Under the pieces are notes generated by a model. The model ran no database searches. It was not told the origin of the DNA and was given only the letters and a program-made list of their open reading frames with translations. The position numbers and the translations under genes were made by a program. From Patescibacteria group bacterium (GTDB taxonomy: Bacteria; Patescibacteriota; Minisyncoccia; Minisyncoccales; JAHCRE01): a DNA stretch of 64,000 bases. The DNA is taken from positions 71,257 through 135,256 of the forward strand of contig JAHCRF010000001.1 in assembly GCA_020148055.1 (NCBI GenBank), given 5' to 3'. Every line of letters starts with the position of its first letter. Positions within the stretch are counted from its first letter, which is position 1. Below, one piece after another: positions 1,426 through 54,010 of this stretch.

Positions 1426-2694
1426 TTAACTTATTCTTAAATTCGCATCAGCTTCAATATCAGGGGCCCGCCAAAGGCGGGAAGGTGGTCGGGACGCGAG
1501 GCCTTCTCGTGAAACGGGAGGCCCCGTCCTTGGGCGGGTCGGAGTCCAGGCCTTAGTTTCTTTTCTGAGATAACGAAAATAAGCAGCTACTGCCACCATA
1601 ACGGCATTATCAGTACATAAAATTTTTGGTGGAACCAAAAATTTAATCGTTAATCGCTGGTTTTTAATTGCTAATTGAAATTGTTTTCTTAATTCATTAT
1701 TGGCAGCCACCCCTCCACCAAGGATAATCATTCCGGCTTTATATTTTCTTGCTGCCTGGATGGTTTTATGAATTAAAACGTCAACTATTGCCTGTTGGAC
1801 CTCGGTAGACATTTCCTGGATAAATTTTTGCTTTTTGCGTTCTGTTTTCTGTTTTTTGATTTTATATAAGACCGCGGTTTTCAGACCAGAAAAACTGAAA
1901 TCAAAATTTTTTTGGTGAATCATTGGCCTCGGTAATTGAATATTGAATATTGAATATTGAATATTGGATTTTAATTGAGCGGCAAGCCGTTCAATGGCCG
2001 GTCCTCCTGGGTAATCCATTCCTAAAATTCTGGCTACTTTGTCAAAACATTCACCAGCAGCATCATCTCGAGTTTCACCAAGGATTTTGTATTCTCCGTA
2101 ATTTTTCATTAAAATTAACTGGGTATGACCGCCGCTTACCACTAAACAAACTGCCGGAAACGAAAACTTTAAACTTGAACCAACCAAGTTGGCGAAAATG
2201 TGAGCTTCGATATGGTTTACTGGGATTATTGGTAGTTCCCAAGAAAAAGCTAAAGCTTTGGCAAAATTTACCCCTACCCACAAGCAAGGTTCTAACCCTG
2301 GCCCCATAGTCACGGCAATTAGATCAATTTTTGGTTTCCTGTAATTTCTTAAGAATTCTTTTAACTCCTTTAAAAGATATTCTTCTCGTTTGAATATTTC
2401 TTCTAATACTGGATACTTGATACTTAATAGTTGATGCTTATCATTTTTTTTAAGCGATTTTGCTTTTTTTAACGCCCTTTTTAAAACAGGAATCAAATTT
2501 CGTTGGTGCTCTCTTTTAGCTAAGGTTGGATAGACTCCTCCATATTTTCTGTGAATTTTTATCTGAGAAGAGATAATATCAGACAGAATATTAATTTTCA
2601 TCCGTCTAAATCCGCGTTGTAATCTACCTTTATCTACTTCTACAATCGCTATACAGGTATCGTCACATGATGTTTCGACAGCAAGAATAATCAT
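1426..2694 (-). CDS. tsaD: tRNA N6-adenosine threonylcarbamoyltransferase TsaD (Kae1/Gcp family)
   Basis: MIILAVETSCDDT, NHIEAHI, VSGGHTQL, LCTDNAVM motifs. At 422 aa it is longer than usual because of repeat inserts at 1463-1547 and 1935-1969. Confidence 0.9.
   Translation of the reverse strand: MIILAVETSCDDTCIAIVEVDKGRLQRGFRRMKINILSDIISSQIKIHRKYGGVYPTLAKREHQRNLIPVLKRALKKAKSLKKNDKHQLLSIKYPVLEEIFKREEYLLKELKEFLRNYRKPKIDLIAVTMGPGLEPCLWVGVNFAKALAFSWELPIIPVNHIEAHIFANLVGSSLKFSFPAVCLVVSGGHTQLILMKNYGEYKILGETRDDAAGECFDKVARILGMDYPGGPAIERLAAQLKSNIQYSIFNIQLPRPMIHQKNFDFSFSGLKTAVLYKIKKQKTERKKQKFIQEMSTEVQQAIVDVLIHKTIQAARKYKAGMIILGGGVAANNELRKQFQLAIKNQRLTIKFLVPPKILCTDNAVMVAVAAYFRYLRKETKAWTPTRPRTGPPVSREGLASRPPSRLWRAPDIEADANLRIS
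1463..1547 (+). repeat. GC-rich hairpin element family A, copy 1 (in frame near the 3' end of tsaD, antisense to the host)
   Basis: 85 nt, about 87% identical by eye to 28032-28115. It is a GC island in AT-rich DNA and encodes ...TPTRPRTGPPVSREGLASRPPSRLWRAP... of TsaD. Confidence 0.9.
1935..1969. repeat. five-heptamer array (attgaat x4 + attggat) inside tsaD
   Basis: Direct reading. Encodes ...SNIQYSIFNIQ... upstream of the conserved FDFSFSGLKTAV. Confidence 0.85.
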
Positions 2695-2780
2695 AGAACT
2701 ATGAATTAAGAATAATGAATCATGAATAATAAAGAAAATAAGTTTCTCGCATAATTCATAATTCCTAATTCCTGATTCAT
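2693..2780. repeat. composite palindrome: inverted heptamer arrays (..tatgaat taagaat aatgaat catgaat / ataattc ataattc ctaattc ctgattc) around a short core
   Basis: Direct reading. Lies in the tsaD / tRNA-Glu spacer. Same 'gaat/attc' word family as 30476-30556, 37402-37510 and 48315-48401. Confidence 0.75.
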
Positions 2781-4515: not shown

Positions 4516-6711
4516 TTATTCTAAATGGATTCTTTCTCGAAACTTCTCTACTCTTCCCCTTAATAAGGGATATTTTTTTAATTCAGGGTCCTCTTCTAAA
4601 ATTTCTTTAGCCGCCTTTCTAGTTTTCTCAACTAAGAATATATCTTTCAAAGCTGACATTGCTAAATCAGGAATTCCCCATTGTCTTTGACCAAAAAAAT
4701 CACCAGGGCCTCGAATTCCCAAATCTTTTTCAGCTAACTCAAAACCATTTTCAGAAGAAATCAAAGCTTTCAATCGTTGATGAGTTTTCTTAGCTGGAGA
4801 GTCAGTGAATAAAAAGCAAAAAGATTGATATTTTGATCTTCCTACTCTTCCCCGAAATTGATGGAGCTGCGCTAGCCCAAATCTTTCTGCTCCCTCAATC
4901 ATCATTACCGTGGCATTAGGAACATCGATCCCCACTTCAATTACTGAGGTTGAGACTAAAATGTCAATCTTTTTACCCCTTCCGGTTTGTGCAGAAAAAT
5001 GTTTCATTATCTTCTCTTTTTCTTTTGTAGTCATTTTCCCGTGTAACATTCCAACTTTTAAATCAGGGAAAACAATTTTTGATAGTTTTTGATATTCTTC
5101 TTTTACTGCCCTTACCTCAGCCCAGCTTGAAATTTCTTTTTCTATTTTTTCCTTATCACTAGGTTCAATCCTTGGGCAAATAACAAAAACCTGTCTTCCT
5201 TTTTTAACAACAGAGCGTATAAAATTATAAGCAGCCTTACGATTTCCCGGGGCAATCACCTTAGTGACGATTTTTTTCCTTCCCTTCGGCAATTCATTAA
5301 TTAAAGAAAGATCAAGATCACCGTAAATAGTAAGAGCCAAAGTCCTTGGAATTGGGGTAGCGGTCATTGATAATAAATGGGGAATTATTCTTGTTGCTTG
5401 CCCGCCTGCCGGCGAGGCTGGTTGCTGGTTGCTAGTTGCTAACTTTGCCCTTTGTTCCACTCCAAACCGATGCTGCTCATCCAGGATAACCAGAGCCAAT
5501 TTTCCAAAGCGCACTTTTTCTTGAATTAAGGCGTGAGTACCAATTAAAAGATCAATCTCTTCTTTTTTTAATTTTTCTAAAAGTTTTTCTCGAGAAATTT
5601 TGATAACTTTATTTTTTCTGTCGCCGAAAGCGACTCCCCGGAGGGTTGCTCTTTTAGAAAAAATTCTATTTTCTTTCCCGGTTAAAAGACCAATATTTAA
5701 ATTAAATTTTTTTAAAAGTTTTGAAATCTCCTGAAAATGTTGCTTAGCTAGGATTTCAGTTGGAGCCATAAAAGCCACTTGGAAACCTTGTTTTATTACA
5801 TTTAAAGCAGCTAATACAGCCACCACTGTTTTCCCTGAACCAACATCGCCTTCTAAAAGTCTGTTCATCGGTCTTGGTTTTTCGAGGTCTTTTAGAATCT
5901 GCCAGGCTGATTTTTTTTGGGCATTAGTTAATTTGAAAGGTAAGCTTTTAACAAAATTCTTAATTAACTGGGGATGAAAAGGGATTGGAATTGCTCTTTC
6001 TTTTGAGATTTTTAATTTCTCTCTTAAAACAAAAAGAGAAATAAAAAAAAGCTCCTCAAAAGAAAATCTTTTCTGAGCCTTTTTGGCTAAGGTTAAGGAA
6101 TCTGGGAAATGAATCTGCCAGATAGCTCTTTGGATTGGCAAAATTCGAGAATCTCTAATTACTTTTCCTGGTAGGGGTTCGCGAATTTTCTTTTTAAACT
6201 CAACCAAAAGGGGTCTTAGAATAAATCTTAACCATCTTGAAGACAATCCTTCAGTTTCGGGATAAACAGGGACAATTCTTCCGGTATGAATTAGACTTGT
6301 AGTTTGACTGATTTTCTCATGAGCTGGATTTGATAGATAAAGTCCTTTGTCTCCGAGAGTTATTTTTCCAGCTAAACATAAATTATCTCCTGATTTTAAA
6401 ACTTTTATTAAATAAGGTTGGTTAAACCAGATTACCTTTATTGCTCCTGATTTGTCTTTGACTATTGCCTGGGTTAAAATCATTCTTTTTTTCCAGGTTC
6501 TGATGTTTTCAATTTCTAGAATTTTTACCTTAATACAACAGGTTTCATTAAGTTTTACTTGAGATATCGGAATTATATTTGAAAAATCCTCATAGCGATG
6601 AGGAAAATGATAGAGAAGATCCCTGATTGTCTTTATTCCCAATTTCTTCAACCTCTTTTGGTAGCTGAGACCTACTCGAGGCAGACTCTCAATTGGAGTA
6701 GAAAGATTCAT
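4516..6711 (-). CDS. recG: ATP-dependent DNA helicase RecG
   Basis: Start moved to ATG 6711 (MNLSTPIESLPRVG), below the tRNA. Has DVGSGKT Walker A, LDEQHRFG, MTATPIPRTL and QFRGRVGRS. Contains inserts B and E. Confidence 0.9.
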   Translation of the reverse strand: MNLSTPIESLPRVGLSYQKRLKKLGIKTIRDLLYHFPHRYEDFSNIIPISQVKLNETCCIKVKILEIENIRTWKKRMILTQAIVKDKSGAIKVIWFNQPYLIKVLKSGDNLCLAGKITLGDKGLYLSNPAHEKISQTTSLIHTGRIVPVYPETEGLSSRWLRFILRPLLVEFKKKIREPLPGKVIRDSRILPIQRAIWQIHFPDSLTLAKKAQKRFSFEELFFISLFVLREKLKISKERAIPIPFHPQLIKNFVKSLPFKLTNAQKKSAWQILKDLEKPRPMNRLLEGDVGSGKTVVAVLAALNVIKQGFQVAFMAPTEILAKQHFQEISKLLKKFNLNIGLLTGKENRIFSKRATLRGVAFGDRKNKVIKISREKLLEKLKKEEIDLLIGTHALIQEKVRFGKLALVILDEQHRFGVEQRAKLATSNQQPASPAGGQATRIIPHLLSMTATPIPRTLALTIYGDLDLSLINELPKGRKKIVTKVIAPGNRKAAYNFIRSVVKKGRQVFVICPRIEPSDKEKIEKEISSWAEVRAVKEEYQKLSKIVFPDLKVGMLHGKMTTKEKEKIMKHFSAQTGRGKKIDILVSTSVIEVGIDVPNATVMMIEGAERFGLAQLHQFRGRVGRSKYQSFCFLFTDSPAKKTHQRLKALISSENGFELAEKDLGIRGPGDFFGQRQWGIPDLAMSALKDIFLVEKTRKAAKEILEEDPELKKYPLLRGRVEKFRERIHLE
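5383..5439 (-). repeat. element family B, copy 1 (gcaacNN heptamers + GC hairpin), in frame in recG
   Basis: Sense strand gcaactagcaaccagcaaccagcctcgccggcaggcgggcaagcaacaagaataatt is about 90% identical to 50750-50807. Encodes ATSNQQPASPAGGQATR. Confidence 0.9.
5620..5649 (+). repeat. element family E, copy 1 (gtcgccgaaagcgactcc hairpin), in frame in recG
   Basis: The gtcgc/gcgac stem with its flank resembles 48138-48156 (gtcgccgtaaggcgactcc). Encodes ..TLRGVAFGDRK... Confidence 0.7.
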
Positions 6712-7084: not shown

Positions 7085-7115
7085 ATTCCTAATTCTGGAT
7101 TCATAATTCTTAATT
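7081..7115. repeat. five-heptamer half-element (ttttatt cctaatt ctggatt cataatt cttaatt)
   Basis: Direct reading. Same unit family as the right arm at 37476-37510. Abuts the terminator hairpin. Confidence 0.7.
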
Positions 7116-7119
7116 TTAA

Positions 7120-7842
7120 TTATTCTCTTGCTACTACTACCCCCTGGATTTCTTTAGCTCCTGATTTTTTTAAAACTCGAGCAGCCTCTTCCATAGTCGC
7201 CCCACTTGTATAAATATCATCAACTAATAAAATTCTCTTCTCAAAAATCTTATTTTGGTTCTGGCAAGAAAATGTTTCTTTAACATTTTCTTTTCTTTCC
7301 CTTTCTGAAAGTTTGACCTGAGGTAAAGTTTCTTTTATTTTTATCAAGCAATTTAAAACTAAAGGAATCTCTAAAATTTTTGAAAGTTCTTTACTAATCT
7401 CAGTTGTCTGGTTAAATCCTCGCCATCTTAACCTCTTTTCATTTAGAGGAATAGGGATTAAAATAAAGTTGGAGAAATTTGGTTTGTTGTTAAGTAATTG
7501 AAAATGAGTTATTATTAAAGAAGCTAAAGGTTTTGCCAGCTCTTTTATAAAAGGATTATATTTAAATTTCTGGATTAATTCTTTTATCAATGGATTTTGG
7601 TAGGAGAGAGCAAAATAGAGAGTACTGAGAATTTTTGGTTGACATTCAGGACACTTCTCTCCTTCTAGTAATCTTTTTGGCTTCTTGCAAAGGCAATATT
7701 GATATTGAGAAATTTCCAGGATAGATTGACAATCTTCACAAAGATAGCTTCCCCCCCGGCCGCAACTAAAACAAGATCTAGGGAAAAGGATATCTAATAA
7801 AAATTTTTTAATTTTTTCCATCATATTTACAGTTCTTTCCAA
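7120..7842 (-). CDS. comF: ComF-family competence protein / phosphoribosyltransferase-fold
   Basis: N-terminal Cys-rich zinc ribbons (CFSCG...CEDC, CPEC) and a C-terminal PRTase motif LLVDDIYTSGATM. Confidence 0.75.
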   Translation of the reverse strand: MERTVNMMEKIKKFLLDILFPRSCFSCGRGGSYLCEDCQSILEISQYQYCLCKKPKRLLEGEKCPECQPKILSTLYFALSYQNPLIKELIQKFKYNPFIKELAKPLASLIITHFQLLNNKPNFSNFILIPIPLNEKRLRWRGFNQTTEISKELSKILEIPLVLNCLIKIKETLPQVKLSERERKENVKETFSCQNQNKIFEKRILLVDDIYTSGATMEEAARVLKKSGAKEIQGVVVARE

Positions 7843-16161: not shown

Positions 16162-16962
16162 ATGGAGTTGGTTTCCTTTTTCTCTCTTTTTATTTTCCTT
16201 TTTGGATTAGCAGTAGGTAGTTTTTTAAATTCAATAATTCACCGCTTACATACCGGCGAAAGTTTTCTATTTACTCATTCCTATTGTCCTCATTGTAAGC
16301 ACAAATTAAGCTGGCAAGATTTAATTCCTATTTTGAGTTTTCTAATTTTAAAAGGAAAATGCCGATATTGTAAAAAAAAGGTGTCCTTGCAATATCCCTT
16401 GGTTGAGTCAGCAACTGGAATTTTATTTATTTTAACTACCCATTACACACTACTTACTATAAGCTACGAAAGTTTACTGTTTACTGTTTACTGTTTACTG
16501 TTAAGTTGTTTCTTAATAATAATTTTCGTTTACGATTTAAAACACTATATTATTCCGGATAAAATAATTTATCCTGCAATAGGCATTGCCTTTATCTATA
16601 ATATTCTTTATTCATACTTCATAATTCATAATTCCTATTTCCTTGTAAATAGTTTATTAGCAGCCTTTACTGGAGGCCTCTCTTTTCTTTTTATTTTTCT
16701 CCTTTCGGGTGGCAAATGGATGGGTTTTGGTGATGTTAAGTTAGTTTTCTTTATGGGTCTTTTTTTGAGTTTTCCAGATATTTTGGTTGCTCTGTTTTTA
16801 GCCTTTTTAGTTGGTGCTATAATAGGGATAGGGTTGATTTCGGCTGGTAAAAAAACTCTTAAGAGTGAAGTTCCTTTTGGCCCTTTTCTGGTGACAGGAG
16901 CCTTTATCGCTTTCTGTTTCGGAAATCAAATAGTAAATTGGTATTTAAAAATTTTAAGATGA
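16162..16962 (+). CDS. pilD: prepilin peptidase PilD (A24 family) with N-terminal Cys4 domain
   Basis: CPHC...CRYC, multiple TMs and the GFGDVKL catalytic Asp context. TATAAT lies 6 nt upstream of the ATG. Carries two heptamer arrays. Confidence 0.85.
   Translation: MELVSFFSLFIFLFGLAVGSFLNSIIHRLHTGESFLFTHSYCPHCKHKLSWQDLIPILSFLILKGKCRYCKKKVSLQYPLVESATGILFILTTHYTLLTISYESLLFTVYCLLLSCFLIIIFVYDLKHYIIPDKIIYPAIGIAFIYNILYSYFIIHNSYFLVNSLLAAFTGGLSFLFIFLLSGGKWMGFGDVKLVFFMGLFLSFPDILVALFLAFLVGAIIGIGLISAGKKTLKSEVPFGPFLVTGAFIAFCFGNQIVNWYLKILR
16472..16506. repeat. five-heptamer array (gtttact x4 + gttaagt) inside pilD
   Basis: Direct reading. Encodes ..LLFTVYCLLLSC... Confidence 0.8.
16607..16641. repeat. 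five-heptamer array (tttattc atacttc ataattc ataattc ctatttc) inside pilD
   Basis: Contains the 18-mer attcatacttcataattc, which is identical to part of the rpoB-rpoC spacer arm (30522-30556). Confidence 0.8.
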
Positions 16963-27177: not shown

Positions 27178-30100
27178 ATGAAGTTTAAAGATTTTTCAAA
27201 ATCAAAAATTTCCCTACCCTTACCTTATTTACTCTCGATTCAAAGAGAAAGCTGGCAGAGATTTTGGGAAAGAGATTTAAAAGAACTCTTTTCAGAAATA
27301 TCGCCCATTCAAGATTATACCGGAAAGGAGTTAGAACTCTGGTTTTTAGACTATAAATTGGATGAGCCCAAATATAAAACTACCTTGGAAGCTAAGGAGA
27401 ATAATGATTCTTATGAAGCAGCCTTGCGGGCTAGAGTAAGATTAGTCAATCTCAAAACAAAAGAAATTAAAGAACAAGAAGTCTTTTTAACCGATTTCCC
27501 CTTAATGACCAAGAGAGGAACTTTTATTGTTAACGGGATAGAAAGAGTAGTTATTTCTCAGCTTATTCGTTCCCCCGGCGCCTTTTTTACTTCTCAGATA
27601 ATTAGAGGTGAAACTCATTTTGGAGCAAAAATTATTCCTAATCGGGGAGCTTGGCTTGAATTTGGAACTGAAGCCTCCGGTTTTATTGGAGTTAAGATTG
27701 ACCGAAAGAGAAAAGTAGCAGCTACTACTTTATTGAGAGCTTTCGGAATTGATCAAGATGAAAAAATTCTAGAGATCTTCCAAGATATTGATAACAATCC
27801 AGAAATTAACTATATTTCAGAGACAATAAAAAGAGACCCTACTAAAAATCAAGCCGAAGCCTTAATTGAAGTCTATCAGCATCTAAGACCAGGAGATTTA
27901 ACAACCGCTGAGACAGCTAGAGAGTTGATTGAAAACATGTTTTTTAATTTTGAAAGATATGATTTGTCAAAAGTAGGGAGATGGCGAATGTGGCAGAGAC
28001 TACCGGAATTGAAAAAATCCAAAATCCAAAAGGGGCCCACGAAAGTGGGAGGGCGGTCGGGACGCGAGGCCTTCCCGCGGAACGGGAGGCCCCGTCCTTG
28101 GGTGGGTTGGAGTCCAAAATCCAAAACTAAAAAGCCAAAGCTAGAAGAAGGAATCACCAGGTCAGATAGGGTTTTGCATCCCGAAGATATTGTGGCTGTT
28201 TTGAGAGAGATTATTAGATTAAATAATGACCCCGGGGGAAAACCCGATCAGATTGATCATTTGGGCAATCGGCGAGTAAGAACTTTAAATGAACTTTTAC
28301 AAAACCGATTAAGGGTAGGTTTAATGAGAATGGCCAGGATTATCAAAGACCGAATGGCTACTTTAGATATTTCCATCTTAACCCCGGTTCAATTGATTAA
28401 TTCCCGACCATTTATAGCGATAGTTAGGGAATTCTTTACCTCTTCTCAGCTTGCTCAGTTTATGGACAATGAGAATCCTCTTGCTGAATTAGAGCATAAA
28501 AGAAGACTATCAGCTACCGGACCAGGTGGTTTAACTCGAGAAAGAGCTGGGTTTGAGGTTAGAGATGTTCAACCATCCCATTATGGAAGGATTTGCCCTA
28601 TCCAAACTCCTGAAGGACCAAATGTTGGGTTAATTAATCATTTAGCTGGTTTTGCCCGAGTTAATCCTTATGGTTTTATTGAAACTCCTTATTTCAAGGT
28701 GAAAAATGGAAGGGTTACTTCAGAAATTTGTTATCTTAATGCCTATGAAGAAGAAAAGTATAATATTGCCCATGGAGGAGTACCAATCGATGAGAAAGGC
28801 AAAATTACCTCCAAAAAGGTTGAAGCTAGAGTAAAGGGTGAACCAGGAATAGTTGGTAGAGAAAAAGTTGATTTTTTCGACATCTCTCCTGCCCAATCAA
28901 TTTCTATCGCTACTTCTTGCATTCCTTTTTTACAAAATGATGATGCCAACCGAGCCTTAATGGGATCAAATATGCAAAGACAAGCTGTTCCTCTTCTCAG
29001 ACCAGGGGTTCCCCTAGTTATTACTGGAGCAGAAGAGAAGGTAGCTAGAGATTCTGGCCAGGAGATAATTGCCGAGGAAGAAGGGGTTGTTACCGAAGTC
29101 GATGCTAATCATATTAAAATTAGGGGTAAAAAGGGAGAAAAGAAATATCCTCTGCAAACTTTTATTCAGACCAATCAATTCACTTGTTTTCATCAAAGCC
29201 CCTTAGTTAAAAAAGGGAAGGTTGTTAAAAAAGGAGACATTTTAACTGATGGTGGAGGAATTTCTCAAGAACATTTAGCTTTAGGCCGAAATATTTTGGT
29301 TGCTTTTATGTCCTGGCGTGGAGGAACTTTTGAAGATGCAATTTTGATTTCTGAAAGATTGGTTAGAGATGATGCTTATACTTCAATTCATATTGAGGAT
29401 TTTAGTTGTGATGTTCGAGAAACCAAATTGGGACCGGAGATTACAACCTGTGATATTCCTAACGTTTCAGAAGAAAAATTGAGGAATTTAGATGAAGAAG
29501 GTTTAGTCAGAATTGGGGCTGAAGTTGGCCCAAATGATATCTTGGTTGGGAAGATTTCTCCAAAAGGAGAAGTTGATTTAACTGCTGAGGAAAGATTATT
29601 GAGAGCTATTTTTGGAGAGAAAGCTAGAGAAGTTAAAGATACCTCTTTATTAATGGAGCATGGTAAACAGGGGAGGGTAATTAATGTGAAGATTTTTTCT
29701 AGAGAATCGGGTCATAGACTTGACCCCGGAGTGATAAAAAGAATTGATGTTAAAGTAGCGGAGATTAGAAAAACTCAAGCCGGTGATAAATTAGCTGGTC
29801 GCCATGGGAATAAGGGAGTGATTTCTAAGGTTTTACCAATTGAAGATATGCCATTTTTAGAAGATGGAACTCCAGTCGATATTATTTTAAATCCTCTAAG
29901 CATTGCCTCGCGAATGAATATTGGTCAAGTTCTGGAAGCTCATTTAGGAAAAGCGGCCAAAAAATTGGGCTACATTGCTATTTCTCCGGCCTTAGCTGGA
30001 GTGACTGAGGAAGAGATTAAAGAAGAGCTTAGGAAGGCTGGATTACCAGAAGATGGAAAAGTCGCTCTTTATGATGGCCGAACCGGCCTACCTTTTTCCA

Positions 30101-30480
30101 AAAAAATTACTGTTGGCTATGTTTATATGATGAAATTAATTCATATGGTTACCGATAAAATCCACGCCAGATCAATTGGACCTTATTCTCTAATTACTCA
30201 ACAGCCCTTAGGAGGAAAGGCCCAATTTGGAGGTCAAAGATTCGGAGAAATGGAAGTTTGGGCTTTAGAAGGACATGGAGCAGCCCATAGTTTACAGGAA
30301 ATGTTAACTATTAAATCCGATGATGTCCAAGGTCGGGCAGCTGCTTATCAGGCCATCTTAAAAGGAGAGCCAATCAGAAATCCTAATGTTCCCGCGTCTT
30401 TAAATTTACTAATCAATGAATTAAAGGCTCTTGGGCTAAATGTTGAAATAAAAGAAAACCCCAAAGAACAAGAATCCTGA
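27178..30480 (+). CDS. rpoB: DNA-directed RNA polymerase beta subunit
   Basis: 1100 aa with canonical beta motifs (GRHGNKGV, FGEMEVWALE). Carries a 123-nt repeat insert at 28014-28136. Confidence 0.97.
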   Translation: MKFKDFSKSKISLPLPYLLSIQRESWQRFWERDLKELFSEISPIQDYTGKELELWFLDYKLDEPKYKTTLEAKENNDSYEAALRARVRLVNLKTKEIKEQEVFLTDFPLMTKRGTFIVNGIERVVISQLIRSPGAFFTSQIIRGETHFGAKIIPNRGAWLEFGTEASGFIGVKIDRKRKVAATTLLRAFGIDQDEKILEIFQDIDNNPEINYISETIKRDPTKNQAEALIEVYQHLRPGDLTTAETARELIENMFFNFERYDLSKVGRWRMWQRLPELKKSKIQKGPTKVGGRSGREAFPRNGRPRPWVGWSPKSKTKKPKLEEGITRSDRVLHPEDIVAVLREIIRLNNDPGGKPDQIDHLGNRRVRTLNELLQNRLRVGLMRMARIIKDRMATLDISILTPVQLINSRPFIAIVREFFTSSQLAQFMDNENPLAELEHKRRLSATGPGGLTRERAGFEVRDVQPSHYGRICPIQTPEGPNVGLINHLAGFARVNPYGFIETPYFKVKNGRVTSEICYLNAYEEEKYNIAHGGVPIDEKGKITSKKVEARVKGEPGIVGREKVDFFDISPAQSISIATSCIPFLQNDDANRALMGSNMQRQAVPLLRPGVPLVITGAEEKVARDSGQEIIAEEEGVVTEVDANHIKIRGKKGEKKYPLQTFIQTNQFTCFHQSPLVKKGKVVKKGDILTDGGGISQEHLALGRNILVAFMSWRGGTFEDAILISERLVRDDAYTSIHIEDFSCDVRETKLGPEITTCDIPNVSEEKLRNLDEEGLVRIGAEVGPNDILVGKISPKGEVDLTAEERLLRAIFGEKAREVKDTSLLMEHGKQGRVINVKIFSRESGHRLDPGVIKRIDVKVAEIRKTQAGDKLAGRHGNKGVISKVLPIEDMPFLEDGTPVDIILNPLSIASRMNIGQVLEAHLGKAAKKLGYIAISPALAGVTEEEIKEELRKAGLPEDGKVALYDGRTGLPFSKKITVGYVYMMKLIHMVTDKIHARSIGPYSLITQQPLGGKAQFGGQRFGEMEVWALEGHGAAHSLQEMLTIKSDDVQGRAAAYQAILKGEPIRNPNVPASLNLLINELKALGLNVEIKENPKEQES
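28014..28136 (+). repeat. nested insert in rpoB: 'aaaatcc' heptamer array interrupted by element A
   Basis: aaaatcc aaaatcc aaaa[84-nt A]aaaatcc aaaacta aaaagcc. The total of 123 nt equals 41 codons. Confidence 0.8.
28032..28115 (+). repeat. GC-rich hairpin element family A, copy 2 (in frame in rpoB, sense)
   Basis: 84 nt, about 87% identical to 1463-1547. Encodes ..GPTKVGGRSGREAFPRNGRPRPWVGWSP... Confidence 0.9.
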
Positions 30481-30556
30481 ATTATGAATTAGGAATCAAG
30501 AATAAAAAATAAGAAATAAAAATTCATAATTCATACTTCATAATTCGTAATTCTGA
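30476..30556. repeat. composite palindrome in the rpoB-rpoC spacer: 5x7 'NNNgaat' array, 11-nt core, 5x7 'attcNNN' array
   Basis: cctgaat tatgaat taggaat caagaat aaaaaat / attcata attcata cttcata attcgta attctga. The left arm overlaps the rpoB stop codon. Confidence 0.8.
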
Positions 30557-30560
30557 TATT

Positions 30561-33500
30561 ATGAGAGTAGCTGATCTTAAATCAATAAAAATTCGCTTAG
30601 CCTCACCAGAAGAAATTTTATCTTGGTCTCATGGCGAGATTACTAAACCTGAAACCATCAATTATCGAACTCAAAGAGCAGAAAAGGACGGTCTTTTTTG
30701 TGAAAGAATTTTCGGGCCAACTAAAGATTATCAATGCTATTGCGGTAAATATAAAAGAATTCGTTATAAAGGGATAACTTGCGATCGCTGTGGGGTAGAA
30801 GTGACAAAATCTTCGGTCAGACGAGAGAGGATGGGTCATATCAAATTGGCCTCACCGGTTTCTCATATTTGGTTCTTAAGAGGAGTACCGTCGCGAATGG
30901 GAATAATCTTAAATGTTTCTTTACCCAAATTGGAAAGGGTAATTTATTTTGCTGCTTACATTATCACAGAAGTTATAGAGGAGGCTAAGAAAAGAGTTTT
31001 AAAAGAGATTGAGAAAGAATACAGGTCAAAGGTAAAAACTCAAAAAGCTTCCCCAGCCCCACCCGCCACCCATCAAAGGAAAAAAACATCTAAGGCAAAA
31101 ACAAAAAGTAAAAATAAAATAAAACCCCAAGACCTGAAAGTAGCCAGAGATAAAGCTAAAGAGGAAGTGTTAGCTTTGAAACCTTTGAAAATTCTTTCTG
31201 AGGTGGAATATCACAATCTTTCTTTTAAATATGGAGAGGTTTTTACAGCGGGAACAGGAGCAGAAACTCTAAGGAAAATTTTTGAGAAGATAGATTTTAA
31301 AAAAGAAATTACCAAATTAAAAAAAGAAATTGAAAAAGCCTCACCGGTGAGTCGAAGAAAAATTTTAAGGAGATTGAAACTCTTCCAGTCGATGTCTAAC
31401 GCAAAACTGAGACCAGAGTGGATGTTTCTGAATGTTTTGCCGATTTTACCCCCAGATTTAAGACCAATGGTTCAGTTAGATGGTGGTCGTTATGCTTCCT
31501 CTGATTTAAATGATCTTTATAGAAGAGTAATTAATCGGAACAACCGTTTGAAATATCTTTTAGAAATTGCAGCTCCTGAAGTTATTGTTAGAAATGAGAA
31601 AAGAATGTTGCAGGAAGCAGTTGATGCTCTGATCGATAATGGAATGAGAAAGGGAGTAATTACCAGGGCGACCACTGGAGGAAGAAGGCTTTTGAAATCT
31701 TTAGCTGATATGTTGAAAGGAAAACAAGGGAGATTCAGGCAAAATCTTTTAGGTAAAAGAGTTGATTATTCGGGCAGATCGGTGATTGTCGTTGGACCAA
31801 AATTAAGACTTCATCAGTGTGGTCTTCCTAAAAAGATGGCCTTGGAATTATTTAAACCTTTTGTTATTAAAAGAATTTTAGATAAAGAATTGGCTTACAA
31901 TGTAAGGGCAGCTTCGAGGTTGATTGAGCAGGAAACCGAGGAAGTTTGGGCAATCTTAGAAGAAGTGGTTAAAGATAAATTGGTTTTATTAAATCGGGCT
32001 CCAACCTTACATCGATTAGGAATCCAGGCTTTCCAACTAATATTAATTGAGGGAGAAGCAATTCAAGTCCATCCTTTAGTTTGTAAAGCCTTTAATGCCG
32101 ATTTTGATGGGGATCAAATGGCTATCCATTTACCTTTATCAACTGAGGCCCAAAAAGAGGCTAAAGAAATAATGTTATCTACCTTAAATCTTTTGAAACC
32201 AGCCACTGGTATTCCAATTGTAACTCCTACTCAAGATATTATCCTTGGCTGCTATTTTTTAACCAAAATTAAAGAGAAAGCTAAAGGGGAAGGGAAGATC
32301 TTTGGAAATTTCCAAGAGACCGTTTTAGCTTATGAGTTTGGAGAGGTAGACTTAAAAGCCGGAATCAAGGTTAAAATAAAGAATTCGGAATTTTTAGAGA
32401 CTTCGGTTGGGCGAATTATTTTTAATGAGACTTTACCCGCAGGCTTCCGGTTTATTAATGAAGTGATAAATTCAAAGAAATTAGAAAAAGTGATAAGTGA
32501 AATTATTGAAAATTACGGAATAGAAAGATCGGTTGCTACCCTGGATAAAATTAAAGATTTGGGATTTGAATATGCCACTATTTCAGGTTTATCCTGGGGA
32601 ATGGATGATTTAGATATTCCTAAAGAAAAAGAAGAATTAATTAAAGGGGCAGAAACAGAAATAGAGATGATCGAAGAACACTTCAAAAAAGGGTTACTGA
32701 CTGAGGAAGAAAAATATCTAAAGACAATTGAAATTTGGCAAAAAATAAAATCAAAAATTGAAAAAATTGTTCCGAAGACATTACCATCTGAGAGTTCAGC
32801 ATTTTCAATTGTTGATTCCGGAGCGAAAGGCTCCTGGATCCAACCTGTGCAGATGTGTGGAATGAAGGGTTTAGTGATTAATCCAATGGGACAGATTATT
32901 GAACTTCCAATCAAAAGTTCTTATAAAGAAGGATTTAATGTTTTGGAATATTTCATTTCTACCCATGGAGCAAGAAAAGGAACAGTTGATACGGCTCTAC
33001 GTACCTCTACTGCTGGCTACTTAACCAGAAGACTTATTGATGTCGCCCATGAGGCAGTAATAACTGAGGAAGATTGTCATGACGAGAAAGGGATTGAAAT
33101 ATCCAGAGGGGATGCTGAAGAAATTGGCCAGAATTTTATCTTCAAGATTTTAGGGAGAGTAGTTATAGAAGATGTCAGAAATCCCGCCAGAGGCGAGGCT
33201 CGCCAAGGGCGGCAAAAAGCAAAAAGCAAAATTATCAAAAAAGGAGAAATAATTGATTGGAAAGCGGCTGAGGAAATAATTAAAGCTGGGGTTGAAAAAG
33301 TTCGAGTTCGTTCTCCCTTAACTTGTAAGTCAACCAGAGGAATTTGCCAGAAATGCTATGGCTGGGATTTAGGCTCAAATCAATTAGTTAAATTAGGGGA
33401 AGCGATGGGGATTGTTGCTGCCCAGGCGATTGGCGAGCCGGGAACTCAATTAACGATGAGAACTTTTCATACCGGTGGCGTGGCTGGAGGAGAAGATATA

Positions 33501-36402: not shown

Positions 36403-37401
36403 ATGGCAAGACAGAAGAAAGAAAAAAAACTTGAAAAAAAGGATTTAGAAGGGGCAATAACCGAAATTAAACAGCGCTTCGGTGAAGGGTCAATCATGAA
36501 ATTAAAAGAAACCCGGCCAGTTGATGTTGATGTAATTCCTACTGGTTCAATTTCTTTAAATCTGGCTTTAGGAGTAGAAGGAATACCTCGGGGTAGAGTG
36601 ATTGAAGTTTTCGGACCAGAGGGAGGAGGAAAAACAACTTTGGCGCTTCATATTTTAGCTGAGGTTCAAAAAAGAGGAGGGGTGGCAGCTTTTGTTGATG
36701 CCGAGCATGCTTTAGATCCTGATTGGGCAAAAAGAATTGGAGTAAACGTCGATGATCTTTTAATTTCTCAACCCGATTCTGGAGAACAGGCATTAGAGAT
36801 CGTTGAGACTTTAGTTAGATCGGGCCAAATTGATGCTATAGTGATCGATTCAGTTGCTGCTTTGACCCCCCAAGCTGAAATTGAAGGCGAGATGGGAGAA
36901 TTTCAGATTGGCCTTCAGGCTCGTTTGATGTCGCAATGTTTACGAAAATTGTCGGGAATTGTTTCTAAAACTAAGACCTCGGTTATCTTTTTGAATCAGA
37001 CCAGGATGAAAATTGGTATTCGCTTTGGAAATCCTGAGACCACTCCTGGGGGTTTAGCTTTAAAATTTTATTCCTCGGTGAGAATTGCTTTAAGAAGAAT
37101 TGCTCAGATAAAACACGGGGAGGAAATTATCGGCAGTCGAATAAAGGCTAAAATTGTCAAAAATAAAGTAGCCGCTCCTTTTAAAACAGCTGAATTTGAT
37201 ATTTATTATAACGAAGGAATTTCTTATCTGGCCGACATTTTAAATACTGGAATTAAGTTAGAAGTTATTAAGAAAGCCGGAAGCTGGTTGAAATATGAGA
37301 ATATAAAATTAGGACAGGGCTTTGAGGCTAGTAAAAAATTCTTGAAAGAGAATCCAAAAATACTAAAGAAAGTAAAAGAAGCGATTGTAAACCAAGTTTA
37401 A
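36403..37401 (+). CDS. recA: recombinase RecA
   Basis: [12 protein letters not shown], the L1/L2 loop region and NQTRMKIG. Confidence 0.97.
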
Positions 37402-37510
37402 GAATCACGAATCACGAATTATGAATTATGAATAGAATAAAAACGGTAATTCAAAAACTGCCCCCAAGGGCAGTTTTTTATTCTTGATTCCTAATTCCTT
37501 ATTCTATTTA
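37402..37510. repeat. composite palindrome: 5x7 array (gaatcac gaatcac gaattat gaattat gaataga), terminator core, inverted 5x7 array (ttttatt cttgatt cctaatt ccttatt ctattta)
   Basis: Direct reading. Lies between convergent recA and rpsR. The right arm overlaps the rpsR stop. Confidence 0.8.
37453..37479. terminator. bidirectional intrinsic terminator core (aaaaa-ctgccc-ccaa-gggcag-tttttt)
   Basis: 6-bp GC stem, 4-nt loop, flanking A-run and T-run. Confidence 0.8.
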
Positions 37511-47327: not shown

Positions 47328-48803
47328 TTAATTCCTAGTCAACATTTTTTCCTTTCTCAATTTCCTATGATAAGAAATCGCAAATCGGTGAGCCTCGTCA
47401 CGTAATTGCAAAATTAAATTGAAAATTTCTCTTGGTAAGTTTTTCAGAAAAATCGGCCTTTTTCGATTCTCAATGTATAGTTTATTTCCCTTTTTAGCTA
47501 AACTTGCAACTATTATCTTTTTTTTGCTTTTTGCTTTTTGCTTTTTGATTTTGAGGGCAGCGTTAAGTTGCGTGATTCCCCCATCAATTAAGACCAAATC
47601 TGGCCAGCCCCATTCAGGATGTTGCAATCTCCGAGATAAAATTTCTTTTATCATTGCTATATCACTCGGTCTGCCAGAAATCTTGATTTTAAATTTTCGA
47701 TAAAATTCTTTAGCTGCCTGGCCTCTAATAAATGTCACCATGGCACCTACAGCTAATTTTCCAGAAATATTTGAAATATCATAGGCTTCAATTCTTTTTA
47801 TCTTCTTTTCGGTTTTTAAAATTTTCTTTAAAATTTTTTGAATTTGGGGCCAGTCCAAAATTTTTGCCTGCTTGCCAGGATCTGTGACTTCAAGCGCTGG
47901 CAGGCGGGCATTAAGGATTACCTTTTCTAAGGAAAATATTTTATCCCTAATTTTGGCTGCTTTTTCAAAATTTTGCAAATCAGCTGCTCTTTTCATTTCT
48001 TTTTTTAAATTTCTTAAGACCTGATTTCTTTTTCCTTGGAGAATTTTGAGAAGATTTCTGGCGTTCCTTTGACACTCCTTTTTAATTTTTTCTCTTAGCC
48101 CAGGAATTTGAGAACTAAGTTTTGCTCCCCCCCTAGGGTCGCCGTAAGGCGACTCCTTCAGGGATTTTAATAGGCAAGGAGCTGGACAACGACCCAATTG
48201 ATACCAGAGACAAGGTCTTTTTGGCAAGATTTTGCAGGTTCTGTAAGGGAGAGCTTTCCTTAAAATTTTTAGAGTTTGTTTTAAAGCTTTACCATCAACA
48301 AACGGACCAATAAACTGGAATTTAGAATTATGAATTATGAATGATGAATTATAAGGTTTTTTCTTTTTTGTTCTTGATTCTTGATTCCTGACTCTTGATT
48401 CCCAAAATGGTTGGTGGGTCAAGAATACTCTTGGAAAGCCCTCTTTAGCTATTCCAACATAAAAATAATTTTTGTCATCTCGCCAAACAACATTATATTT
48501 TGGTAGAAATTTTTTTATTAAATTTGCCTCCAGAATTAAAGCCTCGATTTCTGAATCAGCTTTGATAAAACCTATTTTTTTGGTTTTATCTAGAAAAATA
48601 CTTTCTTTGAAACCGGGTTGTTGAAAATGATTTTTAACTCGCTTTCGAATATTTGAAGCTTTGCCAATGTATAAAATTTTCCTTTCTTTGAAGCAATAAA
48701 CCCCCGGCTTTTTAGGAAGTTTTTTAACCCCCTCCTTTTTTAAAAATTTAAATTTTTTCACGTTCGGTAATCCGATTTTAACTTGAAATTGATAATTTTT
48801 CAA
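47328..48803 (-). CDS. uvrC: excinuclease ABC subunit C
   Basis: GIY-YIG N-terminus (PGVYCF..ILYIGKA..), UvrBC domain, RNase H-like endonuclease domain and a C-terminal HhH region. Interrupted in frame by four repeat inserts. Confidence 0.9.
   Translation of the reverse strand: MKNYQFQVKIGLPNVKKFKFLKKEGVKKLPKKPGVYCFKERKILYIGKASNIRKRVKNHFQQPGFKESIFLDKTKKIGFIKADSEIEALILEANLIKKFLPKYNVVWRDDKNYFYVGIAKEGFPRVFLTHQPFWESRVRNQESRTKKKKPYNSSFIIHNSKFQFIGPFVDGKALKQTLKILRKALPYRTCKILPKRPCLWYQLGRCPAPCLLKSLKESPYGDPRGGAKLSSQIPGLREKIKKECQRNARNLLKILQGKRNQVLRNLKKEMKRAADLQNFEKAAKIRDKIFSLEKVILNARLPALEVTDPGKQAKILDWPQIQKILKKILKTEKKIKRIEAYDISNISGKLAVGAMVTFIRGQAAKEFYRKFKIKISGRPSDIAMIKEILSRRLQHPEWGWPDLVLIDGGITQLNAALKIKKQKAKSKKKIIVASLAKKGNKLYIENRKRPIFLKNLPREIFNLILQLRDEAHRFAISYHRKLRKEKMLTRN
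47531..47565. repeat. five-heptamer array (tttttgc x3, tttttga, ttttgag) inside uvrC
   Basis: Direct reading. Encodes ..KIKKQKAKSKKKI... Reverse complement of the rpoC array family. Confidence 0.85.
47866..47909 (+). repeat. 13-bp GC hairpin insert in uvrC (gcctgcttgccag-N18-ctggcaggcgggc)
   Basis: Direct reading. Two of the 13 pairs are G:T, which is only tolerated if the plus strand folds. Shares caggcgggca with family B. Confidence 0.65.
48125..48163 (+). repeat. element family E, copy 2 (gtcgcc-gtaa-ggcgac hairpin at 48138-48153), in frame in uvrC
   Basis: Perfect 6-bp stem with a GNRA-type loop. Encodes ..KESPYGDPRGGAK... Related to 5620-5649. Confidence 0.7.
48315..48401. repeat. complete 87-nt composite palindrome ('gaat/attc' family) inserted in frame in uvrC
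   Basis: ctggaat ttagaat tatgaat tatgaat gatgaat, then a 17-nt core, then ttttgtt cttgatt cttgatt cctgact cttgatt. 35+17+35 = 87 nt = 29 codons (..ESRVRNQESRTKKKKPYNSSFIIHNSKFQ..). Confidence 0.85.
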
Positions 48804-48864
48804 CCAGATTTGTTAGATAGAGGGTTTGTTGAAATTCTTTGAAATTTTGGGTATAATAACTTTT

Positions 48865-49698
48865 ATGAAAGAAAAAGTTATTAAAATCCGTGGAGCCAAA
48901 GTTCACAATTTAAAAAATATTAATCTTGATATCCCAAAAAACAAACTGGTAGTGATTACTGGGATTTCAGGTTCAGGAAAATCATCTTTGGCCTTTGATA
49001 CATTATATGCTGAAGGACAAAGAAGATATGTTGAGAGTTTATCTGCTTATGCAAGGCAATTTTTAGGAGTGATGGATAAACCAGAGGTTGACAAAATTGA
49101 AGGAATTTCACCTGCAATTTCAATTGACCAAAGAAAAGCAGCTCACAATCCACGCTCCACTGTTGGAACCATTACTGAAATTGCAGATTACTTAAGATTA
49201 TTATTCGCTAGGATAGGGAAGCCCCATTGTCCAAAATGTAAAAAAACAGTTAGCCGTCAGACCATCGATCAAATTACTGATCAGGTTTTGAAATTGCCAA
49301 AAAGAACAGAAATTTCGATTTTGGGTCCAGTTGTTAGAGGTCGAAAAGGAGAGCATCGGGGAATTTTAGAAGAGATTCAAAGATCAGGATTTATCCGAGT
49401 GAGAATTGATGGGATTTTACACCGAATTGAAGACTACAACCCACCCACCATGTCCTCCCACTCGCTTCGCGAGCGGGCCCCTACTCTAGGGCTGAAGTTA
49501 GACCGAAAGAAAAAACACAATATTGAGGTTGTTGTTGATAGATTAATAATTGATAAAGACTTGGATAGATCAAGGTTGGTTGATTCTCTGGAAACAGGCC
49601 TAAAGTTGGGAAAAGGAATAGTAATAGTAACTCAAAAAGCTTCCCCAGCCCCACCCGCCACCCATCAAAGGAAAAAAACATCTAAGGCAAAAATCTAA
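48865..49698 (+). CDS. uvrA: excinuclease ABC subunit A, N-terminal fragment; the frame ends at TAA inside or just after repeat element C
   Basis: [47 protein letters not shown]... TATAAT (48852-48857) lies 7 nt upstream of the ATG. Confidence 0.85.
49435..49492 (+). repeat. GC-rich insert D in uvrA (hairpin cccactcgc-ttc-gcgagcggg at 49457-49477)
   Basis: GC island encoding ..[19 protein letters not shown].. between conserved RIDG and [13 protein letters not shown]. Shares gcgggcccct with the reverse complement of element A copy 1. Confidence 0.65.
49629..49693 (+). repeat. element family C, copy 2; coincides with the frame break in uvrA
   Basis: Identical over 65 nt to 31037-31101. Confidence 0.95.
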
Positions 49699-51799
49699 TG
49701 ACTTAATATTCAGCGAGTATTTTGCCTGCGAGGAATGTGGGATTTCTCTTCCAGAATTAGAGCCTCGGCTTTTTTCATTTAATTCTCCTTATGGGGCCTG
49801 TTCAGCCTGCCAGGGGCTTGGAGAAAAATTAGAAATCGATCCAAAATCAGTTTTACCCAATCCAAATTTATCGATTTCTGAAGGAGCAATTTTTCCCTGG
49901 GCTCATGCCTCTCATAAAGTTGGCAGGCAGGGTTATTTTTGGTGGCAGTTCACCCACTTGGCAGAAAAGTATAACTTCTCCTTAGATGTCCCGGTTAAAG
50001 AACTTCCCAAAAAGATCATTGATTTAATTTTATATGGTAATGGCCAATTTGAGGGAGTAGTTCCCAATTTGGAAAGGAGATATCACGAAACTGATTCAGA
50101 ATATACCCGTAAGGAAATTGAGCAGTATATGATAAAAAAGAGATGTGAAAAATGTCAGGGAAAAAGATTAAGGCCTGAAGCCTTGGCAGTGACTGTGATA
50201 AAAAAATCAATAAATGAAATCGTTGAAATTTCAATAGAAAAAGAAAAAAGATTTTTCGAGAATTTACTACTAAATCCTAAATCCTATAACCTAAATCCTA
50301 ATGACTACAAAATTGCCCAACCAATTGTTAAGGAAATCATTAAGCGATTACAATTTCTAATTGATGTTGGTTTAGATTATTTAACCTTAGATCGGAAGAC
50401 AGAAACTTTATCGGCTGGGGAAGAGCAGAGAATAAGATTGGCTACTCAGTTAGGTTCTCAATTAACCGGAGTTTTATACATTTTGGATGAACCTTCAATT
50501 GGTCTTCATGCTAGAGATCAGGGTAGGCTCATCGAAACCTTAAATAAGTTAAGGGATTTGGGCAATACCGTTATTGTTGTTGAACATGATCCTCAGACAA
50601 TCATGGCTGCTGACTGGGTGATCGATATAGGGCCAGGAGCGGGGAAACACGGTGGCAAAATTATATTTAAGGGAACACCAAAAGAATTACTGAGATCAAA
50701 GACACTTACTGGAGATTATTTAGCTGGAAGAAAGAAAGTTGAGATAAAAGCAACCAGCAACAAGCAACCTGCCTCGCCGACAGGCGGGCAAGCAACCAAG
50801 AATAATTATCTAATAATAAAGAAAGCGGCTGAGCACAATCTCAAAAATATTGATGTTAAAATTCCTTTGGGAAAATTTGTCTGCATTACTGGAGTTTCGG
50901 GTTCGGGCAAAAGTTCTCTAATGAATGATATTTTAGCTAAAGCCCTGATGAGGAAATTTTACAAAGCCAAAGAGGAACCGGGAGAATTTAAAGAATTAAT
51001 TGGAACAGAATTTTTGGATAAAGTGGTTTTAGTGGATCAGTCTCCAATTGGCCGAACCCCCAGATCAAATCCGGCAACTTATACCGGAGTTTTTTCTTAT
51101 ATCAGAGATCTTTTTTCAAAAACCAGAGAGGCCAGAATTAGGGGGTATCGGCCAGGACGTTTCAGTTTTAATGTTAAGGGAGGAAGATGTGAAGTATGTC
51201 AAGGTCAGGGTCAAATCAAAATCGAGATGTACTTTTTGCCTGATATTTATATTGAGTGCCAGGAATGTAAGGGGAAAAGGTTCAACAAAGAAACCTTGGC
51301 TATTGAATATAAAGGAAAGAATATTGCTGAGGTTTTAGAAATGACAGTTGAAGAAGCCCTAAAATTTTTCATAAATATTCCCGGTATCTATCATAAATTA
51401 AAAACTTTGTATGATGTTGGTTTAGGCTATATTCAATTGGGCCAGCCAGCCCCTTCTTTGTCTGGAGGGGAGGCCCAGAGAGTGAAATTAGCTACTGAAC
51501 TTTCTAAAAGGGCTACGGGAAAGACTTTATATATTTTAGATGAACCAACCACTGGTTTGCATCCCGATGATATTAAAAAATTAGTTTGGGTTTTGAGAAA
51601 TCTGGTAGATAAAGGAAATACGGTTTTATTAACTGAACATAACATCGATATCATCCGCAATTCAGATTGGATAATAGATTTAGGACCGGAAGGTGGAGAT
51701 GAAGGCGGCGATATTATTGCAATAGGTACTCCATTTGAAATTACAAAAAACAAAAAAAGTTATACCGGACACTATTTAAAACAAGTTTTTAAATCTTGA
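49631..51799 (+). CDS. uvrA: excinuclease ABC subunit A, remainder of the gene in the +1 frame (open from 49631; UvrA homology resumes about 49700)
   Basis: [41 protein letters not shown]... and a second ABC module, [10 protein letters not shown]...[12 protein letters not shown]...[12 protein letters not shown]. The track only lists it from 49958. Confidence 0.85.
50271..50305. repeat. five-heptamer array (taaatcc taaatcc tataacc taaatcc taatgac) inside uvrA
   Basis: Direct reading. Encodes ..[15 protein letters not shown]... Confidence 0.85.
50750..50807 (+). repeat. element family B, copy 2, in frame in uvrA
   Basis: gcaaccagcaacaagcaacctgcctcgccgacaggcgggcaagcaaccaagaataatt. Encodes [17 protein letters not shown]. 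Confidence 0.9.
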
Positions 51800-51919: not shown

Positions 51920-52210
51920 ATGAAAATAAAACCCTTATCTAATCACATTCTTATTGAGCCAATGAGGCAAGAGGAGAAAACTAAAACCGGAATTTTACTT
52001 CCGGAAACAGCTGAGAAGGAAAAACCAGAGCAAGGAAAAGTAATTGCTGTAGGGCCAGGAAGAAAAACGGATTCAGGTAAAATCATTCCTTTGGAAGTAA
52101 AAAAGGGGGATATTATCCTCTTTACTAAATACGGACCAACAGAAATCAAAATTAATGGTAAAGAATATTTAATTGCTAAGGAAGAAGATATCCTGGCAAT
52201 ACTTGAATAA
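51920..52210 (+). CDS. groES: co-chaperonin GroES
   Basis: 96 aa. [37 protein letters not shown]. Confidence 0.95.
   Translation: [96 protein letters not shown]

Positions 52211-54010
<1,800 letters not shown>

Follow-up and report, generated by a model that had tools for sequence, protein, structure and literature searches.

The 64,000-nt stretch of a Paceibacteria genome analyzed here (hereafter the window; Paceibacteria fall within the Candidate Phyla Radiation, CPR) carries the uvrC gene on its minus strand, and within that gene lies an 87-nt segment composed of two inverted arrays of 7-nt words around a short core. The open reading frame (ORF) of uvrC matches the Pfam domains GIY-YIG (residues 35-104), UVR (261-294) and the UvrC RNase H domain (UvrC_RNaseH, 326-476), together with UvrC fragments in the PDB and thousands of Patescibacteria homologs named excinuclease ABC subunit C. 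An identical gene is present on ENA contig ERZ23498930 scaffold_298. The mechanical ORF start is a TTG at 48803; the database protein P0001 (VKKFKF..., 477 amino acids, aa) begins 14 codons later, and the true start is probably 48761, since most orthologs align from there. The gene and the parts of the element are listed below, the element being given in mRNA sense and then as it reads on the plus strand.

47328..48803, minus strand: uvrC, the host gene, in the short Patescibacteria form without the C-terminal HhH domain
48315..48401, minus strand: whole two-arm heptamer element, UvrC residues 135-163, ESRVRNQESRTKKKKPYNSSFIIHNSKFQ; aligns with the elements of the orthologous loci L082 and L026 at the same codon position
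48367..48401, minus strand: arm 1 in mRNA sense, GAATCAA GAGTCAG GAATCAA GAATCAA GAACAAA; encodes ESRVRNQESRT
48350..48366, minus strand: A-rich core in mRNA sense, AAAGAAAAAACCTTATA; encodes a lysine run and has no G+C hairpin
48315..48349, minus strand: arm 2 in mRNA sense, ATTCATC ATTCATA ATTCATA ATTCTAA ATTCCAG; encodes (N)SSFIIHNSKFQ
48315-48349, plus strand: left arm, CTGGAAT TTAGAAT TATGAAT TATGAAT GATGAAT
48350-48366, plus strand: core, TATAAGGTTTTTTCTTT (17 nt)
48367-48401, plus strand: right arm, TTTGTTC TTGATTC TTGATTC CTGACTC TTGATTC

Direct reading of the sequence thus recovers five NNNGAAT words, a 17-nt T-rich core and five inverted NNGATTC-type words, the architecture described in the first-pass annotation of this DNA. 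Base 48401 is the first position of codon 135, so that the 87 nt correspond exactly to codons 135-163; the earlier observation of a 29-codon element placed in frame within uvrC is confirmed. The only inverted repeats of the element are the arrays themselves, with no separate terminal repeats, and no target-site duplication is found at its flanks (AATAAA ahead of the first word, CTGGAAT, and CCAAAATGG after the last, TTGATTC). If the element is translated, a tryptic loop peptide, PYNSSFIIHNSK, would be expected. In an AlphaFold2 model built with 28 orthologs, residues 131-170 are coil without predicted secondary structure, with a predicted local distance difference test score (pLDDT) of 24-32, which is consistent with a disordered linker running from the GIY-YIG domain to the Cys-rich middle domain. 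The suggestion that structural modeling might place the segment in a surface loop agrees with these values, although as an indication only, the mean pLDDT of the model being 62.

We then compared the linker, defined as the residues lying between the conserved motifs THQ and GPF, across 79 sequences (78 genome loci and the window) and 77 metagenome loci, designated here by L numbers. The genome-contig set did not include the species of the window, its best match reaching 68% identity, and the metagenome scan yielded no relative closer than L081 (L084 duplicates the L081 contig, and L149 begins after the site). The base state of the linker is 8 aa, seen at 18 of the 79 and 7 of the 77 loci. Among expanded linkers, a length of 15 aa is the most frequent (13/79 and 30/77) and corresponds to 21 added nt, or three heptamers. 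Expanded linkers have a best DNA period of 7, and their unit differs in nearly every lineage; examples are GAAATTG, AAAATTA, CTACAAG, AAATACT, TCAAAAT and CCTAAAA. With a 7-nt unit, arrays can survive in ORFs only if the added length is a multiple of three, typically 21 nt. At 34 aa, the window linker exceeds the base state by 26 aa (78 nt), and on this alignment the element is extra relative to the ancestral linker. The proposal of an insertion in uvrC therefore holds insofar as the segment is extra compared with most orthologs; the excess, however, amounts to 26 aa and not 29.

The content of the linker changes rapidly between relatives. The closest, L081, is 84% identical to the window uvrC in amino acids and 87% in nucleotides outside the element, and at the site it has a perfect (GAGACAA)x4 array only, to which arm 1 was aligned, with neither core nor arm 2. 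The next relative, L001, has a CCCTAAA-type array, and so the clade of the window, L081 and L001 holds three unrelated contents at one site. L082/L086 and L026 also have a two-arm GAAT element, in the orientation, frame and codon position of the window copy; the identity of their UvrC proteins to that of the window is about 60%. Because a homologous 29-aa segment exists at that distance, the element is not a private, recent insertion. The first-pass annotation had named such a segment in distant orthologs as evidence against an insertion; it is present, within the UvrCs of other Paceibacteria, which takes that objection halfway. L098/L159 (GAAG/CTTC) and L100 (GTAT/ATAC) have inverted heptamer pairs at this site too, composed of other words. 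Moreover, in L019, L010, L009/L129, L110, L130 and L140, G+C-rich mini-inserts of about 40-130 nt lie inside the heptamer array and split it into two halves (e.g. KLKI...KLKI), as if the arrays received mini-elements of a second class. Similar nesting within heptamer arrays is reportedly a feature of the small dispersed repeats of cyanobacteria, in work of 2008 by Elhai. These data establish the THQ-GPF linker as a lineage-wide hot spot with rapid turnover, rather than a single private insertion target. A search with the 58-aa concatenated window and L082 peptides returned no scored protein match, which probably reflects a word-indexing or low-complexity-filter limit and is not evidence of absence.

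The uvrC element also belongs to a repeat family within the window. Allowing at most one mismatch, GAATNNNGAATNNNGAAT is found 36 times against 1.55 expected, and there are four full two-arm copies, namely the one in uvrC and three between genes; this common architecture bears out the resemblance to intergenic spacer elements that had been noted from the sequence. The intergenic copies and further arrays are as follows.

2694..2780, no strand assigned: intergenic family copy between the start of tsaD and tRNA-Glu; RNA z -3.1 and -5.2
30464..30553, no strand assigned: intergenic family copy in the rpoB-rpoC spacer
37398..37504, no strand assigned: intergenic family copy downstream of recA; RNA z -4.9 and -5.7
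7085..7121, no strand assigned: single-arm ATTC-type array immediately after a terminator-like hairpin downstream of tRNA-Ser
16603..16641, plus strand: single-arm ATTC-type array translated within the prepilin peptidase gene (..YSYFIIHNSYF..)
47518..47555, minus strand: second uvrC heptamer array, (GCAAAAA)n, encoding KKQKAKSKKK; another length-variable site

The two-arm copies vary in word number and core, and the uvrC copy is 60-71% identical to the others in the window. Arm and core of the 30464-30553 copy are 80% complementary to the uvrC copy across 44 nt. The core of the copy downstream of recA, AAAAACTGCCCCCAAGGGCAGTTTTTT (37445-37480), comprises a G+C hairpin preceded by an A run and followed by a T run and, lying between recA (plus strand) and ssb (minus strand), would be terminator-like in both directions. 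The intergenic copies mostly contain stops in all frames.

This family is part of a more general excess of 7-nt periodicity. Counting arrays of at least three copies, with expectations taken from shuffles of the window, we found 27 of period 7 against 0.6 expected, while periods 5-6 and 8-12 stayed near the shuffle background. Counts for periods 5 and 6 at a looser threshold of 0.8 were dominated by A/T-rich low-complexity sequence and were set aside. In 824 kb of related uvrC neighborhoods, we counted 153 period-7 arrays where about 10 would be expected. Real coding sequence contains about 15 of the 26 heptamer arrays of the window, and the view that these elements are not confined to non-coding DNA is thereby upheld. 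Several units recur: GAATNNN; GCAAAAA, in uvrC and also translated in rpoC (33210-33232, RQKAKSK); and AGCAACC, in recG and uvrA. The uvrA gene has heptamer arrays at 50266 and 50748, and the unit CTAAATC is found both in the uvrA of the window and in L082. At the uvrC site 47518-47555, L082, L086 and L026 have (GAATCAA)n instead (KIKNQESRIKN). Units of the uvrC linker also have second loci within one genome, of CCCTAAA type in L001 (1435-1467) and of AAATAC type in L100 (25-62). Judged from sequence, the recurrence of units across loci points to genome-level 'house' heptamers rather than purely local slippage.

Two further observations concern these words. In L001, the arrays at the uvrC site and at 1435-1467 are of CCCTAAA/CCCTATA type and lie 1.5 kb apart; the unit is the complement of TTTAGGG, the plant telomere unit. 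In the window, palindromes of CGAATTA/TAATTCG-type words stand at gene ends (4452-4511 and 52210-52279). They are near-perfect, with overlapping arms of 33 nt (82% complementary) and 41 nt (83%), and may be related to the GAAT family.

One explanation for such a family is that a classical mobile element, similar to a miniature inverted-repeat transposable element (MITE) or a Rickettsia palindromic element (RPE), inserted as a unit, independently in several lineages, with heptamer arrays as its target. The family is indeed dispersed, its presence varies among relatives, its carriers at the uvrC site are not monophyletic in a crude neighbor-joining tree, and L081 has neither core nor second arm; the G+C-rich mini-elements nested in arrays at the same site elsewhere further imply that arrays can be insertion targets. 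Unit insertion is nonetheless unlikely in our view. The uvrC copy has neither a target-site duplication nor terminal repeats distinct from the arrays, and the variation in word number and core, with identities of 60-71%, is not that of a unit-length element. No transposase, integrase or reverse transcriptase was found among all ORFs of the 64-kb window, every one of which is a housekeeping gene. Finally, the two-arm elements of different words at the same site in other lineages fit local or genome-specific array formation better.

A second explanation, put forward in the first-pass annotation, is that the two arms, of about 35 nt each, pair within the uvrC mRNA and that the resulting long hairpin attenuates its transcription or translation, as the terminator-bearing spacers might. 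The intergenic copies of like architecture speak for it: both of their strands show significant folds (z -3.1 to -5.7), and the one at 37398-37504 has a terminator-like G+C hairpin in its core. The fold of the uvrC copy on the mRNA strand, however, is not distinguishable from that of shuffled sequence (-12 to -15 kcal/mol, z -1.2 and -1.6, with 23 of 200 and 19 of 300 shuffles as good), and the plus strand as DNA reaches only -5.2 kcal/mol (z +0.6; 148 of 200 shuffles as good). In agreement with the DNA fold, no inverted repeat with a 6-nt seed was found between the arms in the local region; the arms are not true complements, and they diverge exactly where pairing would make stop codons. The sense consensus fold of four genic copies, at -6.4 kcal/mol, consists of 4-bp GAAU/AUUC blocks with 3-nt internal loops between them. 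Covariation in RNAalifold, from four sequences, was unconvincing: of 45 predicted pairs only one, in the sense fold, was changed on both sides with pairing kept, and none in the antisense fold. The transcribed strand of the element has no G+C stem-loop with a U tract behind it, its core reading AAAGAAAAAACCTTATA in sense, and there are no terminator-like sites on either strand between 47300 and 48900. An Rfam search at gathering thresholds returned tRNAs only and no family for the element. The proposed attenuator is thus not borne out and must be considered very improbable; nothing indicates regulation of uvrC by the element.

The comparison with shuffled controls gave a different answer for one strand. 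As RNA, the plus strand, antisense to uvrC, folds at -24 to -26 kcal/mol (z -4.0 and -4.7) with no shuffle as good, and it does so through G-U pairs. The antisense strand folds better in all three genic copies (sense z is -1.7 for L082 and -2.6 for L026), and the antisense consensus of the four genic copies, at -11.8 kcal/mol, is likewise the stronger. The functional form could accordingly lie on the plus strand, as an antisense RNA hairpin or a signal at the DNA level. Consideration of the reading frames suggests a simpler origin for the asymmetry. Only one of the six frames is open across the uvrC copy, the one used, whereas perfect palindromes made from common family words have at least one stop in each of the six frames; if one arm, whichever it is, is rewritten as the complement of the other, the uvrC frame gains two stops. 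The arms are degenerate because a perfect palindrome would bring stop codons into the translated copy. Words that avoid stops, such as GAATCAA for GAATTAT, turn A-U pairs into C-A on the mRNA and into G-U on the opposite strand, so that these T-to-C changes would be expected to weaken the sense fold more than the antisense fold, with no need for an antisense hairpin to be functional. In addition, compensatory covariation is lacking, and no T tract follows the hairpin. The region has 6 promoter-like matches where shuffles predict 4.5, which is no excess, and the two on the plus strand, from 48472, are situated beyond the element in the downstream direction, where they could not drive its transcription. 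We therefore consider a functional plus-strand form extremely improbable.

Conservation of the element was then examined at the nucleotide level. The whole uvrC gene is 65-67% identical in all three comparisons between the window, L082 and L026, and in each of them the element is more conserved than its surroundings. Between the window and L082 the elements are 85% identical, with third positions at 0.90, against 0.62 and 0.57 in the flanking 40 codons and 0.50 in the rest of the gene. The window and L026 elements are 74% identical (third positions 0.76; flanks 0.57 and 0.57; rest 0.50), and those of L082 and L026 76% (0.76; flanks 0.50 and 0.47; rest 0.47). Among codons for the same residue in the window and L082, 20 of 20 are identical in the element, compared with 52% in the rest of the gene. 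Part of the element identity is forced by the word structure, in which four of seven arm positions are fixed. At the nucleotide level, then, the GAAT/ATTC words are renewed or under constraint. The cause could be concerted evolution or the copying of family members into the site, a lateral exchange of the element alone, or a constraint on DNA or RNA.

Such conservation might be read as domestication, in which the element or its lysine-rich peptide has gained a function, for instance as a protein-binding site of phased GAAT words or as a DNA-contacting loop, and is kept by purifying selection. The third-position values in three lineages (0.76-0.90 against about 0.50), the frame, orientation and position common to L082, L086 and L026, and the closer similarity of the uvrC copy to the copy at the orthologous site than to those of its own genome would all follow from such a function. 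Yet most orthologs do without the element, having the 8-aa base state or other units, and the closest relative has a simple array only. Selection on the peptide would not account for conservation that extends to synonymous sites, and part of the identity is imposed by the word family itself. We know of no protein that binds (GAATNNN)n words. Domestication is, on these grounds, doubtful.

Taken together, our analysis suggests that the uvrC segment is probably a translated and tolerated copy of a heptamer-word palindrome family, located in a hypervariable linker that is predicted to be disordered, and not an attenuator. The family consists of inverted (GAATNNN)n and (NNNATTC)n arrays about an A/T-rich core, dispersed through this Paceibacteria genome. 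In more than 150 related genomes, the UvrC linker gains, exchanges and loses arrays, for the most part by 21 nt at a time. The ribosome would read through the element to produce a 29-aa low-complexity loop, and the element would persist in the sole stop-free frame and orientation, its words carrying substitutions that remove TAA, TGA and TAG and that would, at the same time, ruin the hairpin on the mRNA strand. The uvrC copy would then be a tolerated passenger that lengthens the loop, while the family would be kept or renewed at the level of nucleotides and not of protein. The insertion is presumably tolerated and neutral, and the copy may have spread by copying or gene conversion from family members, or may have grown in place.

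Several observations weigh against this reading. A purely neutral passenger should decay, but the element and its L082 counterpart show 85% identity, compared with 67% for the genes. The intergenic copies of the same genome are less similar to the uvrC copy (60-71%) than its L082 counterpart is, which speaks against a recent origin by insertion from the local family and allows for a function. The lack of monophyly among GAAT-element carriers calls for several gains or many losses, and no target-site duplication, transposase, integrase or reverse transcriptase in the 64 kb points to a way of copying. The low overall confidence of the AlphaFold model (mean pLDDT 62), lastly, makes the disordered surface loop an indication rather than a firm premise.

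Other repeat-like inserts were observed within genes of the window. A second length-variable site in uvrC, at 48125-48170, is a G+C hairpin with a GTCGCC-TTAC-GGCGAC core (sense RNA -23.2 kcal/mol, z -3.5) that encodes SLKESPYGDPRGGAKL; several orthologs have SPKESLRLPTGQAKL at this site and others nothing. A 65-nt sequence is 100% identical at 49629-49693 in uvrA and at 31037-31101 in rpoC. In rpoC it is in frame. In uvrA stop codons follow it and the frame continues at +1, giving two ORFs (48826..49698 and 49958..51799), and the uvrA of ENA contig L083 is split likewise; the split may stem from a mini-insertion that shifts the frame, from uvrA being a pseudogene, or from an A-run error of sequencing or assembly. 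An 85-nt element of 73% G+C (35% for the genome) occurs at 1464-1548 and 28032-28116, in frame in tsaD as the reverse complement and in rpoB in forward orientation. Its copies are 85% identical and fold as RNA at -43 to -45 kcal/mol, with z only -1.1 to -1.6, and the UvrC heptamer array of L019 has a similar G+C-rich sequence nested in it. A 48-nt element, (AGCAACC)x3 followed by a G+C hairpin, is found at 5393-5440 in recG and 50749-50796 in uvrA. The two copies are 92% complementary and, having like orientation relative to their genes, encode the near-identical peptide ATSN(Q/K)QPASP(A/T)GGQAT; a related 'GGQAT' sequence is found in the UvrC site of L009/L129.

A broader proposal, which we put forward tentatively and as something short of an expectation, is that Paceibacteria (CPR) genomes may run a sequence-selective 7-nt repeat system. 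Every genome would have a few house heptamers of its own (GAATNNN, GCAAAAA, AGCAACC and CTAAATC in the present one), which would be copied or regenerated at many loci, often in inverted pairs around terminators, would time and again colonize the same permissive loops of essential genes (uvrC, uvrA, recG, rpoC, tsaD) and be translated there, and would serve as landing pads for G+C mini-elements. Were this the case, the synonymous-site conservation of the uvrC copy would mean active maintenance or a function at the DNA or RNA level, and not drift. This wider phenomenon of house heptamers, hot spots in essential genes and nested G+C mini-elements outweighs the single uvrC copy in interest. The more than 150 orthologous uvrC linkers form a natural experiment in which the base state, 21-nt expansions, inverted pairs and nested G+C inserts are all seen at a single codon position, and with this series both the 7-nt periodicity and the dispersal of house heptamers can be put directly to the test. 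For the annotation of CPR genomes, it follows that many length differences in conserved proteins may represent repeat-derived loops and not functional domains.

In-frame repeats in essential genes are already known from Rickettsia, and heptamer repeats from cyanobacteria and Beggiatoaceae; for Patescibacteria, we found no description of heptamer, MITE-type or in-frame palindromic repeats in the searchable literature. REP/BIME, ERIC, SPRITE and other MITE-like palindromes resemble the present family in being short, intergenic, able to fold as RNA and near or combined with terminators (37398-37504, 7085-7121). Unlike REP/BIME, ERIC and SPRITE, however, the family is made of modular heptamers and has no target-site duplication, and no RAYT or transposase is found in the window, so that membership in these groups is not supported. 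Borg elements contain fast-evolving nucleotide repeats within ORFs, which add low-complexity, probably disordered segments (PMC9879509). The Borg repeats are reportedly direct and tandem (PMC9879509), in contrast to the inverted pair of 7-nt units in uvrC.

TAACTGA heptamers in Beggiatoaceae, Cyanobacteria and Bacteroidetes are mostly intergenic, with some genic copies in a stop-avoiding orientation and at the periphery of the protein structure (PMC4679880). A few genome-specific units of this type occupy many loci, by a mechanism of spread that is not known, and nearly all sets are direct repeats, with one indirect repeat reported (PMC4679880). The short tandemly repeated repetitive sequences (STRRs) of cyanobacteria are found even inside the RNase P RNA gene (Vioque 1997, cited in PMC2858038). 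The family described here shares with the STRR and TAACTGA systems a 7-nt unit, genome-specific words and a combination of intergenic with stop-free genic copies; it differs from them in its units (GAATNNN, GCAAAAA, AGCAACC), in its phylum and in the arrangement of inverted pairs around a core. The units of the window are likewise not known among STRR1-3.

RPEs are palindromic repeats found between genes and in frame within unrelated housekeeping genes, where they are translated as a peptide compatible with the fold of the host protein (PMC10969869). Like them, the uvrC family is dispersed, with several copies per 64 kb, one of which is in frame in a conserved gene. RPEs are unit-length elements of about 100-150 bp that fall into defined families with a conserved peptide, whereas the uvrC family consists of variable numbers of 7-nt words around variable cores, in a CPR host and at a high-turnover site. 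The likeness between the two is one of behavior and not of construction, and relatedness in sequence would not be expected.

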